Positions 8,867 through 17,463 of a stretch of DNA of 17,844 nucleotides are shown one piece after another. The notes below the pieces were generated by a model. That model had not been told where the DNA came from. It saw only the letters and a program-made list of their open reading frames with translations, and did not search any database. The number at the start of each line of letters is the position of its first letter. Position 1 is the first letter of the stretch. Made by a program: the position numbers and the translations under genes. Origin of the DNA: Deinococcales bacterium (GTDB taxonomy: Bacteria; Deinococcota; Deinococci; Deinococcales; JAAFIG01); contig JAYWGM010000073.1 in assembly GCA_043778225.1 (NCBI GenBank), positions 1 to 17,844 on the forward strand, read 5' to 3'.

Positions 8867-10282
8867 ATGATTCAGTCTGTTTATAAAACAATTGCAGGTA
8901 CATTATTAACATTGGGATTTGGACTGATCACCATTAAAGTGCTTGCTCTTATAGCTGGTCCTACTGGAGTCGGTTTACTTTCTATACTCAGGCAGTTGCA
9001 ACAAACAGGTAGTCTCATTGGTTCAATTGGTGGTCAAACAGCCTTAATTCAAGGATTAGCCAGTCGTAGGGGACAAGAAAAACTGCTATATACCAAAACT
9101 GCTATGATTGCGTATTTTGTTTGCTCAGGTTTAGTTGCGGTGATTCTATGGCTAACGGCACCATCAATTGCTCAATTCATTTTTGATGATCCAACTCTTA
9201 TTAAAATTGGTATGGATTTAACATCACAAATTACTTTGGTAAAATGGAGTATTCTTGCCGTGATTATTGGTGTTGTGATGATTTTCTTTCAAGGTATTCT
9301 CAATGGATATCGTGCCTTGGGTAGATTGGCGCTACTGCAAGTTGTAGGAGCAGTCATAGGCGCGATTCTGGTTTATCCGAGTGCATTATTATTCAAAATC
9401 AATCAGCCCACAGCAATTTTCTTTATACTTGTTGGTTCTTTGTTAGGGAGCGCAATAACTGGTGGGTATGCCGTTTGGAAAGCTGGCTGGTTAGCAGGTA
9501 TCTGGAGGGTAAAAATTGAATCAAGTGTACAAAAAGCATTTACTAAACTTGCTTTCAGTATTTTGTTAGCCAACCTTTTAAGCCTACTGACGCTTTTGTT
9601 TTTACGGTCAAAAATTATAGGGGATTTCGGGTTGTATAAAGCAGGTTTATTTGATGCCGCTTGGACAATCAGTAATACCTATGTTTTAATTGTCCTAAGT
9701 TCTTTAGGTACCTATTATTTGCCAACCCTTAGTGCAGCAAGTAATTTAGGTGAACAACAGCTTTTAATACGCAAAGTTTTAACATGGTGTACGGCTGCAT
9801 CCATACCCCTTATTTGTACTTTAATACTCTTACGTGACCCAATTTTATACTTATTGTACTCGGAACAGTTTACAGAATCATCTCAGGTCATGCGGTTTAT
9901 GCTACTTGGTGATTATCTCAAAATCTGTAGCTGGGTACTTGCTATGCCATTGGTGGCTCTAGCTAAACCGAGCGCTTTTTTGCTTGGTGAAGTCGTTGCC
10001 AATGCAACTTTTTTGCTATTCGGTTTAACAACCAATACCTTGCAAGGTATTGGTATGGCTTTCCTTATGTCTTACATTGTTTATTTAATTTATATTATTG
10101 TTTTAGCTTTACATTCCAAGTATATTCGGATCAAAAATCTGTTACCGTGGTTATACGGGACTTTTTTTATAAGTAGCATAAGTTTTCTGAGTTGGCAACA
10201 ACCACTTGCATGGTATACGATTTTTGGGCTTTTAGTCGCATCGTTTTTTATTGGCTTTTGGGTTTTGAGAGGAACAAAATAA
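8867..10282 (+). CDS. wzx: Wzx-type oligosaccharide flippase
   Basis: 471 aa with about 12 hydrophobic segments. KVLALIAGPTGVG, YYLPTLS, LYSEQF and LLGDYLKICSW are typical of WzxE-like translocases. Confidence 0.85.
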   Translation: MIQSVYKTIAGTLLTLGFGLITIKVLALIAGPTGVGLLSILRQLQQTGSLIGSIGGQTALIQGLASRRGQEKLLYTKTAMIAYFVCSGLVAVILWLTAPSIAQFIFDDPTLIKIGMDLTSQITLVKWSILAVIIGVVMIFFQGILNGYRALGRLALLQVVGAVIGAILVYPSALLFKINQPTAIFFILVGSLLGSAITGGYAVWKAGWLAGIWRVKIESSVQKAFTKLAFSILLANLLSLLTLLFLRSKIIGDFGLYKAGLFDAAWTISNTYVLIVLSSLGTYYLPTLSAASNLGEQQLLIRKVLTWCTAASIPLICTLILLRDPILYLLYSEQFTESSQVMRFMLLGDYLKICSWVLAMPLVALAKPSAFLLGEVVANATFLLFGLTTNTLQGIGMAFLMSYIVYLIYIIVLALHSKYIRIKNLLPWLYGTFFISSISFLSWQQPLAWYTIFGLLVASFFIGFWVLRGTK

Positions 10283-11409
10283 TGTATACCCTGATTACAG
10301 GTGGACTGGGGTTTATTGGCTCGAGATTAGCCTTAGCACTCGTATCTCGAGGTGAAGAAGTTTTTTTGCTCGATAATCTCAATACGCAGATTCATGGGGA
10401 TAATCCTATTTTTTCACTGCTCAAGTTACCTCAAATTCGTTTTTTGCAAGGTGATGTAACTGATATTGCGGCTCTTAAAGTAGCTTTGGAGGGTGCAAAA
10501 GCAGTGGTGCATTTAGCGGCAGAAACCGGTACGGCGCAGTCCATGTATGAACTTGCAAAGTACAATTCGATTAACTCTCAGGGAACAGCGCTGCTGATGG
10601 ATTACTTGGTCAATCATCCACATTCGGTACAAAAAGTAGTGCTGGCTTCCTCGAGGTCAGTTTATGGTGAAGGTGCATACTTGTGCGGCGCACATGGCAT
10701 GGTCACACCACATCCTCGAAGTTATGTGACACTCGAGCAAAAACAATGGAATCCAGTCTGTCCGCTTTGTGGTGGTCTGATCGAGCGCATGGCAACACCA
10801 GAAGAAGCTCGAGTTTATCCCGCTTCGATTTATGCTGCGACCAAGTATGCCCAAGAAGACTTGGTGCGAATTGCGTGTGCTTCGGCTGGGATTGGTGCGA
10901 GTATGCTGCGTTTCCAAAATGTTTATGGTGCAGGGCAATCGTTGCATAATCCGTACACAGGTATTTTGTCAATTTTTTCAACGCGGATTAGGCAACAAAA
11001 AACCATTCCGATTTTTGAAGATGGACTCGAGAGTCGTGACTTTGTTCATGTTTCAGATGTGGTAAACGCCATTGTCATGGCTTTGGATTCGAGTACCGCC
11101 AATGCAGAGGTCTTAAATGTTGGTAGTGGCGTTCCAACTTCGGTTCTCGAGGTAGCAAATTTATTGTTCACAGCATTAAATGGTAAAAAAATCTCAACTC
11201 CCACCATTTCTGAGCAATTCCGAGTAGGCGATATTCGACACGGGTACGCTGATATTCGGCGGATTGAAACGGTTTTAGGCTGGCAACCAATGGTCAGTCT
11301 CGAGATGGGCATAGCCGAATTTGCCGCTTGGGTGGAGTCGCAACCGCTTCCAGAAGACCGCTTAGATGCTGCTCTAGCAGAACTGAAAGCCAAACGCATG
11401 GGAGCATAA
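10282..11409 (+). CDS. NAD-dependent epimerase/dehydratase (extended SDR) with Cys-rich insert
   Basis: [24 protein letters not shown] and RDFVHV motifs. Start at ATG 10282 overlaps the wzx stop. Confidence 0.92.
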
Positions 11410-11960
11410 TGACCTTAAAAGAATTATTATTGGCTGATCTTGAACGACAAGATTTTTATGCGAATACGCCAGACATTCCTAAAACATTGCTCCGCGTTGT
11501 TTTGAAGGCGTTCTCACCGCGTTTTGCGCCAGTGGTACTTTACCGTTTATCCCATTTTTTTTGGCAAAAGAAACTGAGTCCATTAGCGAAATTCTTTTCG
11601 TTGCTGAACTTTTGGTTCTTTGGTCTCGAGATCGCTGTTCGTTCCGAAATTGGTGCGGGTTTGTACTTACCTCACACAGTTGGAACGGTTCTTAGTGCTG
11701 AACGAATTGGTTGTCGTTGCGTGATTTTTGGACAGGTTGTGCTTGGCGCAAAAGAAGTAGATTTTGCTTTTACCAGTTCATCACGTCCGATTCTTGGTGA
11801 TGATGTGATGATTGGAACGGGCGCAAAAGTATTAGGTGGTATTAAAATTGGCAATCGTGTCAAAGTAGGTGCAAATGCCGTGGTGATTCGGGATGTGCCT
11901 GATGACTCTGTGGCTGTTGGTGTACCCGCTATGCACAAGCCACTTGAGGTAAATCGGTGA
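11409..11960 (+). CDS. Serine-acetyltransferase-like (CysE/WcaB family) hexapeptide O-acetyltransferase
   Basis: [34 protein letters not shown] and [11 protein letters not shown]...VGVPA motifs. TAATG coupling to the upstream gene. Confidence 0.88.
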
Positions 11961-12946
11961 GCTTAGCAGGGAAAAACATTCTATTTTTTAGTCCAGAATT
12001 TTTTGGCTATGCCAAAGCCATTACTGCCGAATTATTACGTTTGGGTTCAAATGTAGATGCGTATGATACTCGTCCTGATAACTCTACCCTAACCAAAGTA
12101 GGATTGCGGATTGCACCATTTTTACTGGCTAATCGAACTAATACCTACCACAAAGAAATTCTTGGGCGCTGCCAAAAACAATACGATTATGTGTTTGTTA
12201 TTCGTGGCGAAGGCATGAACTCGAGTATCCTTAAATCGTATCGAACAGCCTTTCCAGACGCTAAATTTGTTTATTATACCTACGATGCTTTGTCCGAAAA
12301 TCATTTAACCCTCGAGTTCGAACCATATTTTGATCGCCTTGCTTCGTTTGACCCACTAGATTGTGCAACTCACTCATTTCTCGAGTACCAACCTCTATTT
12401 TACATTCCCAAGTATGCTTCTGTTCCCAATACTCCATTTGCAACTCGAGCTTATGATGTCTCAAGTATTGGAACATTCCGATTAGATCGGTATGAAACTA
12501 TAAAGCGCATAGATGGTATTCTCGAGCCGAATCTGAAACGATATTACTTTCATTATCATCCAAGTCAAGTTATTTTTAATACTTTTAAGTTATTTTCTCG
12601 AGCATATCGTGAAGTCAATCCTGCCGAACTGCACTTCCAATCGTTAGCGGCAAATGCAGTAGCGGATGTGCTGACCGAATCAAAAGTGGTAATTGATGTA
12701 CAAAAATTGCATCAACGTGGTTTAACCATGCGAACCATCGAAATGTTAGGGGCAAATAGAAAACTCATCACCACCAACAGCCAAGTCAAAACCCATGATT
12801 TTTATAATCCCAATAATATTTGTGTGGTCAACCCACTCGAGCCAGTTATTCCTGGCAATTTTTTTAGCATACCGTACCAAGCTCCAGCTTTTGAGACTCG
12901 AAAGAAGTACAGTCTTGCATCGTGGCTCGAGCGGTTATTAAGCTAG
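11957..12946 (+). CDS. Polysaccharide biosynthesis protein, putative GT-B glycosyltransferase
   Basis: [26 protein letters not shown]...[13 protein letters not shown]...KLITTN resemble uncharacterised cps/LPS cluster proteins. Operon context. Confidence 0.65.
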
Positions 12947-12948
12947 TT

Positions 12949-14394
12949 TTAGTATGCACCCTCAGCGCGTAACACGGCTCTAAAGGTTCTAGCAAGGATG
13001 TAAATATCGAGCCAAACACTCCAGTTGCGAGCATAGTAAGCATCAAACCGAACCCGTTCAGCATAGGTTGTGTTGTTGCGTCCGTTGACTTGCCACATTC
13101 CAGTTAAACCTGGGGTGACTTTGGTGTAGAGCTTATACGCATCACCATAACGGGTTATTTCGTTTTGCACAATCGGTCTTGGTCCGACCAAGCTCATTTC
13201 GCCTAAAAACACATTCCAGAGTTGTGGCATTTCATCCAAACTGGTTTTTCGCAGCAGCCAGCCAACTTTAGTTACTCGAGGGTCACGGCGAAGTTTTTGA
13301 TCCAACGCCCATTCTGCTTGCAGTGCTGGGTTTTGCTCGAGTGATGTTTTAAGGACTTCCTCGGCGTTATGAACCATACTACGGAATTTAAATGCTCGGA
13401 ATGGTTTGCCACCTCGTCCAATGCGTTCTTGGGTAAAGAAAACCGCACCTCGAGACTCGAGCCTGATGGCAAGACTGATTAAAATCGTTAATGGCAATAA
13501 AAATGGTAATGCCAGCAACACAAGCACCAAATCCATAAACCGTTTAACCCGTTTAGAGAGTGGTTGCAGCAAGTTCTGTCGCACCTCGAGCGCAAGTAAG
13601 CCGCCATAGTCCTTGGCGCTCGCCCAAAGACTTGCAACACCAAGTAAGTCAGGAACCAAATACAACCTAGGAAAGAACGAACCGTAGTCCTCGATAATCT
13701 CGAGGAGTCGTTCGCGTTTTGCCCCAGGCATGGCAAGCAGCGCATGGCGTACCCCATAGCGCTCGGCAAGAATTGGGGCGAGTTCGAGTCCACCAATCAC
13801 GGGTATGTTCTCGAGTTCGCCGTGTTTGGTTGGGTCATCGTCTAAAAACGCCACAAGTTTTAAGCCAAGTCCTGGTTGTTTTTGTAGACTTAATGCAATA
13901 ATCCGACCTGTTTCGCCAGCCCCTAGAATCACCACTGGCACACCCCACCAAGCAGCTTTGGCAAATAAACTACGGGTGATGGCTCGAGCTAGTGGCACAA
14001 GCAGTAAACTGAGCAGCAGCGCCACAATAAAAGCCAACCTCGAGTACAGTTCTGCGGCTCTCAAGAAAAAACTGGTTGCCCCAAGCAGCGCATAGACCAA
14101 GGTAATTCCAAGTGTAGTCAGCCGCAATTCTTCGACTGGATTTAAGCCCGAGCCTTGGTAGAGTCCAAAAGCTGCAAAAGCCACAATAAATAAGCCCAAG
14201 AATGGTGCAAGCGCAATATAGGTTTGGAATTCAAACGAGCCACCGGTGACCCAACGCCAAATAACGCTGCTGCTGTTGGCTAAGGTTATTGCCAGTACAT
14301 CGGTCAGGATTAAACTCAGCATTGTTAGCCAAGGCTGGGTTTTTACGCCCACGGAAACACGGCGTACAGTCTCGAGGGTTTGGGGAGTAAGCAT
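12949..14394 (-). CDS. wbaP: Undecaprenyl-phosphate sugar-1-phosphate transferase, WbaP type
   Basis: N-terminal TM helices, [35 protein letters not shown] and MSLVGPRP motifs. Confidence 0.95.
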
Positions 14395-14428: not shown

Positions 14429-14794
14429 TCACTTTAGCATCAGCGTTGGCTTACTGCCTTGGCGTGGTACAAGCAGCACATCGTAATCGGCTTCATGGGC
14501 AAAACGCAGCAGCGTTTCGACATTGGCATTGCTGGCTTTTTCAAGTGCTGTAACTCGAGGCTGGCTCAGTCCAAGGGCTGCACCTAATTCTCGGGTGGTT
14601 AAGCCCTGAATTTGACGCAACTGAGTAAGTGCTTGTCCAATATCTTCAACTTCGATACTCTGCTCGAGTAATGCCCGAATTTCTTGTGGTGTGACCTTAG
14701 CCAAATGATGAGCTTGAATAACAGCTTCGGATTCTGGTGAGCCACGAAGTGCTTTGATTCTGGCTTTCATGGTTGCGTCAATACTGTTCTTCAT
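14429..14794 (-). CDS. XRE-family HTH protein, putative HigA-like antitoxin
   Basis: IGQALTQLRQIQGLTTRELGAALGLSQPRVTALEK HTH. Starts 3 nt after the upstream toxin-like gene. Confidence 0.8.
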   Translation of the reverse strand: MKNSIDATMKARIKALRGSPESEAVIQAHHLAKVTPQEIRALLEQSIEVEDIGQALTQLRQIQGLTTRELGAALGLSQPRVTALEKASNANVETLLRFAHEADYDVLLVPRQGSKPTLMLK

Positions 14795-14797
14795 TTT

Positions 14798-15241
14798 TTA
14801 TACCATCCTTTGTAAACGATTCTGATGCCGAGTGCGTTGTGATTCTGGGAATACTGGCTTACCTTGCTCGAGTGCGTCCTGAATTTCCAAAGTGTCGGCA
14901 ATCATCCATTCGTTTGCTTGGTTGCGTTTTTTACATTCAGCATGGGTAACATAAGCACAATGGTCGTTACCCCGAATTAAATAGACTCGAGCCGCTCCAG
15001 AGCCTACTTTTCCTGCTTTTAATTCGTAAATTGCACCACCAAAAGGCTTGATGAAACGACAGTTGTATGTTCCTCGCTCATTCTTTGTAAAACCATGCAA
15101 ATACAAATCCTCGAGCATTGCAATAACCTTATTTACACAATCCTGTTTGCCTTCTTGAACCATCTCGAGCAAATCTTGAAGCAATGGTTCTCGAGCAGCA
15201 TTTAAGCGGTTTGGGTGAAAGGGTAATGCAATCATGGACAT
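14798..15241 (-). CDS. Putative RelE/HigB (Gp49-like) type II toxin
   Basis: FIKPFGGAIYELK...ARVY...YVTHAECKK pattern of RelE-superfamily toxins. Toxin-first order with an XRE partner. Confidence 0.7.
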   Translation of the reverse strand: MSMIALPFHPNRLNAAREPLLQDLLEMVQEGKQDCVNKVIAMLEDLYLHGFTKNERGTYNCRFIKPFGGAIYELKAGKVGSGAARVYLIRGNDHCAYVTHAECKKRNQANEWMIADTLEIQDALEQGKPVFPESQRTRHQNRLQRMV

Positions 15242-15358: not shown

Positions 15359-15484
15359 TCAATCTGCCTGAAAAGAAATCGTTTCACCATCAATAATAGT
15401 TGTAACAATCCGTCCACGCGGTTGCCGTAAGCCTCGAGCCACCATCACTTGACGTTTGGCTTCAGGTGGGTATTCATACCGTCT
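15359..15484 (-). pseudogene. Possible C-terminal gene remnant (RRYEYPPEAKRQVMVARGLRQPRGRIVTTIIDGETISFQAD*)
   Basis: Protein-like 41-codon open frame with no start codon at its 5' end, truncated near the IS end. Its stop lies just before repeat R2. Confidence 0.35.
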
Positions 15485-15528
15485 TTATTTAGATACTATG
15501 CAATCCGCAAAAAACGCGGATTGAATTG

Positions 15529-16462
15529 TCAAGAAGTCGTGGACATGAAGTTCGGTACTTGAGCTTGAGTCCAGCATTCCTCGAACTCAACAGGCGATTT
15601 ATAGCCAATTGTGGAGTGCAACCGTTTCCGATTGTAGAACACTTCAATCCACTCGAACACCACAGCTTTAGTTACCTCTCGAGACCCGATAACCTTATTT
15701 AAGCCCAACTCGAGTTTGAGAGTGCCAAAGAAGCTCTCAACCACGGCATTATCCCAGCAATTACCTTTTCTACTCATACTCGAGACTCCGTTAAACTTAT
15801 TTACGGCTGTTTGGAACTCGAGACTTGCGTACTTCTTGACCCCTAAAGATGCACCTTGCGGGCTGGGGTCGCTGAACACCGCGATCAGAGTGATGCAGCA
15901 ATCCATCAGCAGGTTTACGACTCACTCGAGCCATCTCAAGTGCTTTGACTGGCAGACTCGCCTCGAGACTCGTTCCCATTTCCCAGCCCACGGTCTTTCT
16001 CGAGAATAAGTCCAGCACGACAGCCAGATATAACCAACCGTCACTTGTGGGAATGTAAGTAATGTCTGATGCCCATTTCGTATTTGGCTTTTCTGCGCCA
16101 AAGGCTCGATTCAGTTTATTCTCAAAATACCCAAGTGAATGCTTAGAATCGGTTGTGACACGGAATTTGCGTTTACACTTGCCTTTCCACCCATGAGACT
16201 TCATGATTCTAGCCACTCGAGGACGACTCGCTTTGATTCCTCGAGCCTCCAAACCCTTTTGTACTTTAAGACTGCCAGAGTTACCTCGAGACTCGTTGTA
16301 GACCTCCTCAATGTCTTTCTCGAGGGCTTCATTCTCGAGTGTGCGTTTGCTTTTGGGGCGGGTTAGCCATGCGTAGTAACCACTTCTCGAGACGTTTAGT
16401 ACGTGTAGCATTAGTCTAAGTGGGAATTTCACAAAGTTCTCTTTGATAAAACCGTACCTCAC
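15529..16462 (-). pseudogene. IS3 transposase OrfB (DDE integrase core), frameshifted by a 40-nt insertion
   Basis: WASDITYI, WLYLAVVLDLFSR and HHSDRGVQ lie in one frame. YAS...SMSRKGNCWDNAVVESFFGTLK and FYNRKRLHSTIGY lie in another. Removing 15832-15871 rejoins them. Confidence 0.9.
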
Positions 16463-16773
16463 TTGCTCTCTCTCGCAAAGAATTTGGCTGCTGCTTTTAA
16501 AATTTCACGCTCCTGTCGAAGTAGCACGACTTCCCGTTCAAGGTCTTTCATCTTTTTTTCGGATTCACTTAATGCAGCTACACCTCGTCCAGTAAAGGCT
16601 GGTCGTCCATAAAGGTCGGCTTGTTTAGCTTGGTTGACCCATCGGTTGAGTCCTGCTTGAGAGACTCCTAAGTCCCGAGCAGCTTGTGAAATGCTCATCC
16701 CCTCTTGCTGGGCGAGTTGAATAGCTTGTTGCTTGAATTCTAGCGTATATGTTTTCATTTGTTTTGACATCAT
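16459..16773 (-). CDS. IS3 transposase OrfA (HTH)
   Basis: KTYTLEFKQQAI...SISQAARDLGVS...LNRWV and LRQEREILKAAAKFFA. GGAG RBS (start 16773 or 16770). GTGA overlap with orfB and a candidate -1 slip site T-TTA-AAA at 16501-16495. Confidence 0.9.
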   Translation of the reverse strand: MMSKQMKTYTLEFKQQAIQLAQQEGMSISQAARDLGVSQAGLNRWVNQAKQADLYGRPAFTGRGVAALSESEKKMKDLEREVVLLRQEREILKAAAKFFARESK

Positions 16774-16827
16774 AGTCTCCGATTTCATTTTGAAACCGAA
16801 CTTCATGTCCACGAAAGTGTATCTAAT

Positions 16828-17463
16828 TCACTGGATAGGGTACAACAATTCACGGTACTTTGAATCAGAAAAAGCACCAATTTGCAGACGCATTTCTCGA
16901 GAATCGCTTGTCAAAGCAATAAACTGAGCATAAGAACGAGCAAATAGCTCATGCCACTCGAGATAATAAGCTAAGTCGTCTCGGTTAATAAGTCGTTCAT
17001 ATTCCAAGCCTAACACCTGAATCTTTCAGGTTTTAAGACTTCGCATCGAAACCAAAGTCTTAAACGCCTCAGAATCAGCGATTGCTAGTCGCCAAGGTTC
17101 AAACTCGAGCGCAAAAGCACTTGGATATACTCCAAGGTCAGCAAAACCATACGCCTCGAGTCCATGACCAAATTCATGCGCCAAGTCTAAACTGCTGACC
17201 GATTGGTCAGAATGCAAAAATAACCACGCTCGGTCTTTATCGGCTTTGAAACCAGCAATCCAATCATCACCATCGCTATTCACGTCAATGCGGACTGGTT
17301 GCCAGAAACCATCACCATGAACTTGGTCAATGGCAGATAGCGCTGTTTGTAATCTGTTTGAATACCAAACTTTGGCATTCAAAACTGGAAAGTGCGAACT
17401 GATAAATGTGCCATGAGGTGAATATAACTGCACTCGAGCTTCGGGGATTTCTACGCCATTCAT
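16828..17463 (-). pseudogene. Zincin-like metallopeptidase (HExxH...ELFARSYAQ), with an in-frame TGA and 3' end truncated by the IS
   Basis: ORFs 17026..17472 (LAHEFGH) and 16828..17016 (HELFARSYAQFIA) share a frame and are separated by one TGA at 17028-17026. The final stop is supplied by the IS terminus. Confidence 0.65.

Follow-up and report, generated by a model that had tools for sequence, protein, structure and literature searches.

The 40-nt insert that interrupts an IS3 transposase gene in the window (the whole 17,844-nt stretch of Deinococcales DNA analyzed here) is one copy of a family of gene-less hairpin mini-elements found in an uncultured Deinococcales family. We are highly confident that it is a mobile mini-element and that the orfB gene is knocked out. 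With moderate confidence, we favor the fuller explanation that a gene-less element spread across the whole family has likely inactivated orfB, and that it likely moves as folded single-stranded DNA (ssDNA) with the help, in trans, of a RAYT-type Y1/HUH nuclease.

Results

The insert and its IS3 host element

A first-pass annotation of the window had reported 40 extra nucleotides within the orfB frame of an IS element on the minus strand, and this was borne out, with an IS3 element as the host. Scripted removal of the 40 nt left orfB open over 297 codons, whereas the unaltered frame stops after 221, and the HSDRGVQYAS motif, which the annotation expected to be restored by exact removal, is intact in an insert-free paralogous IS3 on contig C94 (82% identical). 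The inverted arms and inner hairpin were found as previously described. The position given for the insert (15832..15871) was one base off: other copies and empty sites place it one base upstream, at 15833-15872. It consists of a 39-nt core (15872-15834) and a 1-nt 3' tail, A, at 15833, for a net gain of 40 nt and a frameshift. The features of the insert and of its host are as follows.

15833..15872, minus strand: mini-element as inserted, from the family alignment and homolog-anchored empty sites
15865..15870, minus strand: 5' arm of outer stem P1, which covaries across variants
15838..15843, minus strand: 3' arm of outer stem P1, with the invariant AAGA next to it at 15837-15834
15851..15863, minus strand: invariant inner hairpin P2, with four G-C pairs, a bulged T at 15853 and a GN(N)A loop at 15859-15856
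15522..16830, minus strand: IS3-family insertion sequence with TG...CA ends
16459..16812, minus strand: orfA, HTH_Tnp_1, open
15797..16462, minus strand: orfB as now read, 221 codons, with HTH_21, a truncated rve, 24 foreign codons and a stop
15529..15832, minus strand: orphaned 3' part of orfB (rve_2, rve_3), which carries the Glu of DD(35)E

The host has an orfA with a helix-turn-helix domain, an orfB with an rve domain and TG...CA inverted ends, as expected of the IS3 family, and its inner inverted repeat (IR) is perfect over 20 bp (15537-15556 and 16795-16814). The rve domain of the current orfB ends past the region of the second catalytic Asp. Given the residues that we take to form the DD(35)E motif, the spacing of which was counted on the sequence, the break falls between the second Asp and the Glu. 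Judged from the reading frames, the element likely inactivates this transposase gene. The 10-bp inverted match between the insert and the terminal IR of the IS, which had been noted as possibly due to chance, proved to be a feature of the IS itself, as GTCAAGA is also present in the right IR of element-free IS3 copies.

A hairpin repeat at 15470-15523 abuts the right end of the IS3 element and is also found near the ends of six other contigs. No target duplication is present and the left flank (16831-16840) is unrelated, pointing to a rearrangement after the IS had inserted. The gene pair at 14429-15241 beside the IS, encoding a 147-aa protein and a 121-aa HTH-like protein, resembles by eye a type II toxin-antitoxin system.

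Independent contigs support the insert

Four sequencing runs (X1, X2, X3 and X6) of 16 listed were compared. Contigs of runs X1 and X2, which are of the same study and possibly of the source sample, cross 15640-15941 with 0 differences. All four runs, among them X3 from another study, also have contigs of related IS copies in which the two sides of the site are contiguous and the insert is absent. Because independent contigs span the site and related copies lack the insert, it is not an assembly artefact, an outcome that the first-pass annotation had named as fatal to its reading; the comparison of IS copies that it proposed yielded both kinds, the C94 IS3 being empty. That the insert is an artefact, or else the scar of a larger element, is thus extremely improbable. 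In its favor, the four runs contained no insert-free copy of an identical IS, but it is countered by the spanning contigs, by the approximately 152 copies described below and by a half-site search that found no larger element with such ends among the matches listed.

A mini-element family in Deinococcales genomes

The exact 40-mer occurs once in the source genome (G000), and its relatives are present throughout. With a structure-aware pattern, and with inner copies successively peeled from outer ones, the proposed search for further copies returned 152 family members (130 + 19 + 3 by peeling round), compared to 2 in the Markov control and 1 in the reversed genome. Inserted lengths were 36-41 nt, mainly 39 and 38. 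Intact copies that became visible only once an inner copy was removed numbered 22, which indicates that insertion is precise. An example of such nesting from another genome lies inside an IS3 orfB (G016, L183:520-660), where three mini-elements are inserted in one another.

A looser pattern gave 40-327 matches in 16 of the 18 other genomes of the same Deinococcales family, with 0-8 in reversed controls; the two low-copy genomes, G013 and G002, had 14 and 1. The full-element pattern matched 81 times in G009, 8 times in G013 and once in G002. Twelve genomes from four other families of the order remained at background level. In GTDB, 70 of the 80 titled matches among those listed were Deinococcales/Deinococcota metagenome-assembled genomes (MAGs), and the other 10 had, by eye, no complementary 5' arm, so that true copies were confined to Deinococcales among the matches listed. 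A search of viral contigs yielded, across 118 loci, 2 weak matches that are probably due to chance, and a phage reservoir for the element was rejected on this basis. In the freely accessible main texts of the literature on small mobile repeats, we found no published description of the family.

The element folds in two tiers

Each copy contains a 5' GC, an outer stem of 5-7 pairs, an inner hairpin, a pyrimidine-rich linker of 5-7 nt, the second arm of the stem, an invariant AAGA and a 1-2-nt tail (GC-stem-GCCC-GN(N)A-GGTGC-linker-stem-AAGA + 1-2-nt tail). The inner hairpin is invariant, with four G-C pairs, a bulged T and a G-N(1-2)-A loop. We examined pairing in 44 distinct 37-nt variants from the loci, leaving out 1 of 45 that was a chimera of nested copies. 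In this set, 94% of the cells were paired, compared to at most 40% in slid controls, and five of the six outer-stem pairs varied on both sides (39 cells vs. 11.5 in shuffles). The inner stem never varies and therefore holds no covariation information by itself. Predicted folds of the single copy had z scores of -2.1 as RNA and 0.0 as DNA (56 nt); a fold predicted from a single sequence is weak evidence by itself.

The loops and mismatches bear on which nucleic acid folds, and on which strand. Tetraloops (n = 185) were GNYA in 120 cases and GNRA in 64, and a GNA triloop was found in 20 of 205 contexts, a set that still includes three of six non-Deinococcales ids, all six of which were dropped from the pair-type count. 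The GNYA/GNA pattern is typical of DNA mini-hairpins (PMC13037366), and its predominance points to a DNA-type fold rather than to the GNRA loops of RNA. On the GCG...AAGA strand, mismatches were G-T in 9 cells and A-C in 1, and G-A in 29 and C-T in 3 (565 cells, 113 variants). Since G-T exceeds A-C and G-A exceeds C-T there, this strand is likely the folded one, and these sequence patterns make it probable that it folds as DNA. ViennaRNA, which has no GNNA bonus, favors the opposite strand of the window copy (-7.1 vs. -5.6).

Likeness to the twister, pistol, HDV and SAM-I motifs, judged by eye, was rejected, as the matching letters vary across copies. An Rfam covariance-model search of the region gave no ribozyme or intron match, the only hit being sucC, at an E value of 1.7, elsewhere.

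Ends, tail and target site

Unoccupied sites, in homologous IS3 copies as well as in paralogous repeats, set the 5' end of the element at G 15872, and the net gain equals the core plus 1-2 nt. For IS3, we used 23 homolog-anchored insertions, having dropped 3 of 26 rows (two nested inner copies and one outside the IS). The tails were A in 17, CA in 2, AA in 2, C in 1 and G in 1, and the targets were A↓G in 13 of 23 and T↓G in 2 of 23 (the arrow marks the insertion point). Over 137 non-nested contexts, the base before the element was A in 61% and the base after it was G in 69%; target information reached at most 0.7 bit per position, and there was no fixed tetranucleotide target. The target preference that the first-pass annotation had proposed to determine is probably a weakly defined N↓G, usually A↓G, or C↓T when read on the opposite strand.

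The AG direct repeat described at the borders of the insert does not hold as a feature of the element. An A↓G target joined to an element whose first letter is G and whose last letter is A produces it, with no fixed duplication. Overall, a 1-nt duplication was slightly more frequent than by chance (62 of 118 copies vs. 51 in permutations). Of 54 cases with a non-A upstream base, 16 had that base again behind the element, compared to 5.6 expected, and a GA tail followed a GA target in 12 contexts. There is, then, a partial tendency to copy target bases into the tail. A fixed AG or 1-nt target duplication as a rule was rejected, as many homolog-anchored cases have no duplication.

Copies accumulate in repeats and in IS3 elements

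Intergenic junctions lay in multi-copy DNA in 79 of 92 cases, compared to 216 of 1500 random intergenic points, and the DNA of landing sites forms more stable hairpins than that of random intergenic points (p 0.002). Copies have landed in GTAG-type REPs, in runs of heptamers, in the ends of other mobile elements and within the loop of the element itself. The inner-hairpin loop is the commonest site of nested insertion and is also an IS110 target elsewhere in the genome. For a possible targeting of hairpin tips, this greater hairpin stability is favorable, but insertion points were unpaired in 85 of 137 cases, no excess over the 62% average, and the orfA hot spot described below gave no predicted hairpin.

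To survey IS3 elements, the intact C94 OrfB was used as the query in 19 family genomes. Of 67 matches, 30 loci were considered, and removal of two duplicates and of the window's own copy left 27; the strict pattern makes the resulting counts a lower bound. At least one element was present in 12 of the 27 copies among the matches listed. The density was 18 elements in 26.9 kb of IS3 vs. 2 in 46.0 kb of flanks, the latter being mostly coding. At one site near the end of orfA, six different variants were found in seven IS3 copies from six genomes, always antisense; the window copy is empty there. Further IS3 sites were hit two or three times, some probably by descent. Enrichment figures of this kind are overstated, since related genomes and multiplied IS ends are not independent. 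Relaxed selection accounts for much of the IS3 load, while the repeated hits at single sites indicate a real site preference. IS3 elements are hot targets for the mini-element, presumably because certain sites attract insertion and hits in IS3 copies escape purging.

The first-pass annotation had proposed a tiny non-autonomous mobile element parasitizing an IS. The approximately 152 copies, their precise nesting, the empty homologous sites and the repeated independent IS3 hits uphold the former part; specificity for an IS fell away, as most copies lie in REP-like palindromes, other repeats, heptamer runs, each other and, in frame, host genes.

Several individual loci illustrate the range of sites. 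One IS3 copy in G009 carries six different mini-element variants (L151:3690-4743), and in its sister (L152:1341-2161) a chimeric element marks a partial orfB deletion between two copies. In the source genome, a 37-nt copy lies antisense in the anticodon loop of what by eye is a tRNA-like sequence (C28:45893, L202), and two gene-less repeat families of ~150-200 nt (L167 and L168, on C98 and C1) each have three or four element insertion sites. An IS110 of 336 aa, with DEDD_Tnp_IS110 and Transposase_20 domains, has inserted into the loop of a nested mini-element and is bordered by AAG on either side (L199:240-1410; C26, ~30440-31610). Two short pieces of its upstream non-coding stretch match the element loop, as expected of the target loop of a bridge RNA. 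This IS110 parasitizes the element and is not what moves it.

Host genes retain only frame-preserving insertions

Among sites in host genes with Pfam support, none of seven shifts the frame (purL twice, dnaE, dnaX, metH, a nuoC-like gene and a U32 peptidase gene). The net lengths there are 39, 78 or a cluster of 3n, and the frames stay open; a nuoI-like gene provides two further 39-nt cases. In IS3 copies, by contrast, 15 of 23 insertions shift the frame (Fisher p 0.006). The host genes were chosen on the element-free version of the genome, so that broken ones would have shown up, as did an xisH-like gene and a transposase gene. These are frameshifted by a 40-nt copy (xisH-like) and by a 37-nt copy (DDE_5/DDE_Tnp_1 transposase), respectively (G000 C27:31009 and C45:2318; L162 and L161). 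Left out of the host-gene count were six other non-3n junctions in long frames of that version, which lie between genes, before the first domain or in last codons, and three more in short unsupported frames.

These results bear on the suggestion that the insert is an RNA element, spliced or bypassed to control the transposase. Survival of only 3n lengths in host genes speaks against splicing or skipping of the element, since its removal would make length irrelevant. Elements in IS3 occur in both orientations, antisense being common. The take-off codon (CAG) differs from the one that precedes the resume codon (AAG), no stop follows take-off, and CGA is common here (10.2 per 1000 codons). Together with the lack of an Rfam match, these observations argue against a spliced or bypassed RNA element.

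A recoding or splicing signal that limits transposase output would suit the position of the hairpin right behind a codon boundary and a Gln codon within the loop that lies in the downstream frame. We regard this explanation as highly improbable. Besides the unmatched codons, the missing stop and a CGA that is not a hungry codon, a ribosome landing at the Gln of the loop would lengthen the catalytic core by 8 residues, and the loop in question is found in 8 of 205 contexts; the 3n restriction in host genes, the common antisense IS3 insertions and the absence of an Rfam family weigh against it as well. The flagged copy is an ordinary knock-out and no control switch.

A RAYT-type nuclease as the candidate mover

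Under the mechanism that we favor, the element would move as folded ssDNA, cut and pasted in trans by a RAYT-type Y1/HUH nuclease. Candidates for the protein-binding signals are the terminal AAGA and the inner hairpin, which is invariant and has a bulged T. Repeats and mobile DNA would be entered at loosely specified N↓G sites, chiefly A↓G, with the addition of a 1-2-nt tail, A by default or else a copied target base.

RAYT as the mover is our best guess, a tentative one that stops slightly short of an even chance. RAYT-like genes were found in 17 of 19 family genomes. RAYTs cut ssDNA at CT or CA, and the E. coli RAYT needs a bulged hairpin (PMC8266576, PMC3333891). Both junctions of the element and most of its targets read C↓T on one strand, and the favored landing places include REPs, where RAYTs work. 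Against a RAYT, the element has no GTAG tag, and RAYTs cut the hairpin-bearing strand, whereas the C↓T reading holds on the strand that is probably unfolded. The copied target bases (16 of 54 vs. 5.6) argue against a clean HUH strand swap, which would copy none. Of 20 RAYT-like loci, 3 have an element nearby, and in all three cases it lies within a GTAG-type REP. In G013, 7 RAYT-like matches go with just 8 element copies, and G005 has 78 element matches with no RAYT found in a genome that is 84% complete. At one locus of the source genome (L134:1477-2230, on C32), a RAYT-like gene contains two GTAG-type REPs within its reading frame, and a mini-element lies in the REP just upstream.

Spread through an RNA copy, in which a reverse transcriptase or polymerase starts from a nick that bears a 1-2-nt overhang and uses the short RNA as its template, would yield a precise 5' end and a variable tail of A or target bases. 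The tail is indeed 1-2 nt and mostly A, with the copying of upstream bases and the 12 GA-after-GA contexts described above, and the tandem arrays and the RNA fold z of -2.1 also suit this route. We consider it unlikely. Reverse transcriptase genes are present in 5 of 19 family genomes and in 1 of 7 high-quality ones (the single one of G000 had no mini-element next to it among the features listed), GNYA and GNA loops predominate, G-T pairs are few (9 of 565), and nesting accounts for the 5'-truncated copies. Reverse transcriptase was rejected as the mover on its presence in 5 of 19 genomes.

A different ssDNA-processing enzyme, such as an IS200/IS605 TnpA, a tyrosine recombinase or another host protein, has in our estimate a low probability. 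The bulged hairpin and strand asymmetry would suit any hairpin-reading HUH or integron-like enzyme, the strand conflict with RAYT rules would be avoided, and an IS200/IS605 TnpA is present in G000. However, the element has no tetranucleotide target, the IS605 ends in L002 are unlike the element, and, except for the loop-inserted IS110, no gene lay between half-sites among the matches listed. The same half-site search for an autonomous parent with the same ends gave only nested remains and that one IS110 among the matches listed.

Comparison with known systems

The ends of IS200/IS605 elements and of PATEs are recognized as ssDNA hairpins, and insertion requires a fixed tetra- or pentanucleotide target. 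The Deinococcales element shares with IS608/ISDra2 the ssDNA hairpin and an unpaired base as the likely recognition signal (PMC3333891, PMC8266576), but it has one nested hairpin rather than two ends and no fixed 4-5-nt target 5' of the insert. Unlike in a classical MITE, the inverted arms are subterminal and asymmetric, and the 1-2-nt tail is often no copy of the target.

The small dispersed repeats (SDRs) of Nostocaceae, described by Elhai et al. in 2008, are reportedly 21-27 nt long. Compared by description, these are likewise very small, precise, lineage-restricted insertions with no known mobilizer (PMC4390886, PMC5861425, PMC3116915); the Deinococcales element is 36-41 nt, belongs to another phylum and has no fixed octamer target like HIP1. 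Rickettsia palindromic elements, which the first-pass annotation had also cited as analogs, are similarly found in frame in housekeeping genes, where they are read as an extra peptide, but they are ~150 bp vs. 39 here (PMC10969869); in the Deinococcales family, only 3n copies survive in host genes, and others frameshift IS genes.

The closest parallels are with REP/REPIN/BIME repeats and their RAYT (TnpA_REP) partners. These are also gene-less imperfect hairpins of 20-40 nt in high copy number, with strand asymmetry and a conserved bulge (PMC3333891, PMC8266576, PMC3733652, PMC3116915) and with intragenic in-frame copies (PMC3733652); C↓T or C↓A junctions on one strand (here probably the unfolded one) and RAYT genes in the same genomes are further likenesses. 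The element differs in having no GTAG/CGTC at the hairpin foot and invariant ends GC(G) and AAGA instead, in its two-tier fold of a covarying outer stem and an invariant inner hairpin, in forming no inverted doublets and apparently not flanking RAYT genes as a REPtron, and in inserting into REPs, IS genes and itself with a 1-2-nt tail. The T4 gene 60 cassette and yeast byps resemble it as hairpin inserts of 30-55 nt in coding sequence, and bypass cassettes have matched take-off and landing codons and a stop or hungry codon (bioRxiv 2022.08.31.505936). In contrast, the Deinococcales element has unmatched codons, no stop or hungry codon, both orientations and 3n selection in host genes. It is a further variant of the tiny REP/SDR-like mobile repeats, one that lacks the tag of REPs, the terminal repeats and fixed duplication of MITEs and the fixed target of PATEs.

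Significance of the family

A bolder reading, which we consider rather unlikely, is that these elements form a distinct class of ~38-nt ssDNA micro-transposons that borrow a HUH nuclease in trans, find targets by shape or by hand-over to mobile DNA and act as a natural IS silencer, with IS3 riddled at recurring sites and an RNA-guided IS110 homing into the element loop. If true, they would be among the smallest mobile units in bacteria, and a 38-nt precise ssDNA insertion unit could serve as a tool.

Little direct evidence bears on the old question of how REPs, SDRs and other tiny repeats of this kind spread. The present family supplies hundreds of dated, nested and precisely bounded insertions with known empty sites; its covarying fold names likely recognition signals, and the list of candidate enzymes is short. 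The recurrent hits in IS3 transposase genes indicate that tiny repeats can shape insertion-sequence turnover. The present analysis contributes a survey of IS3 based on homolog-anchored insertions, and a test of frame selection that removes recoding as an explanation.

Other observations on the window and the genome

The hexamer CTCGAG is very frequent in the window. In the G000 genome, many 6-bp palindromes are strongly avoided, GGCGCC being seen 3 times vs. ~2070 expected. On one contig of this genome, 23 tRNA genes lie in a block on one strand (9937-14171).
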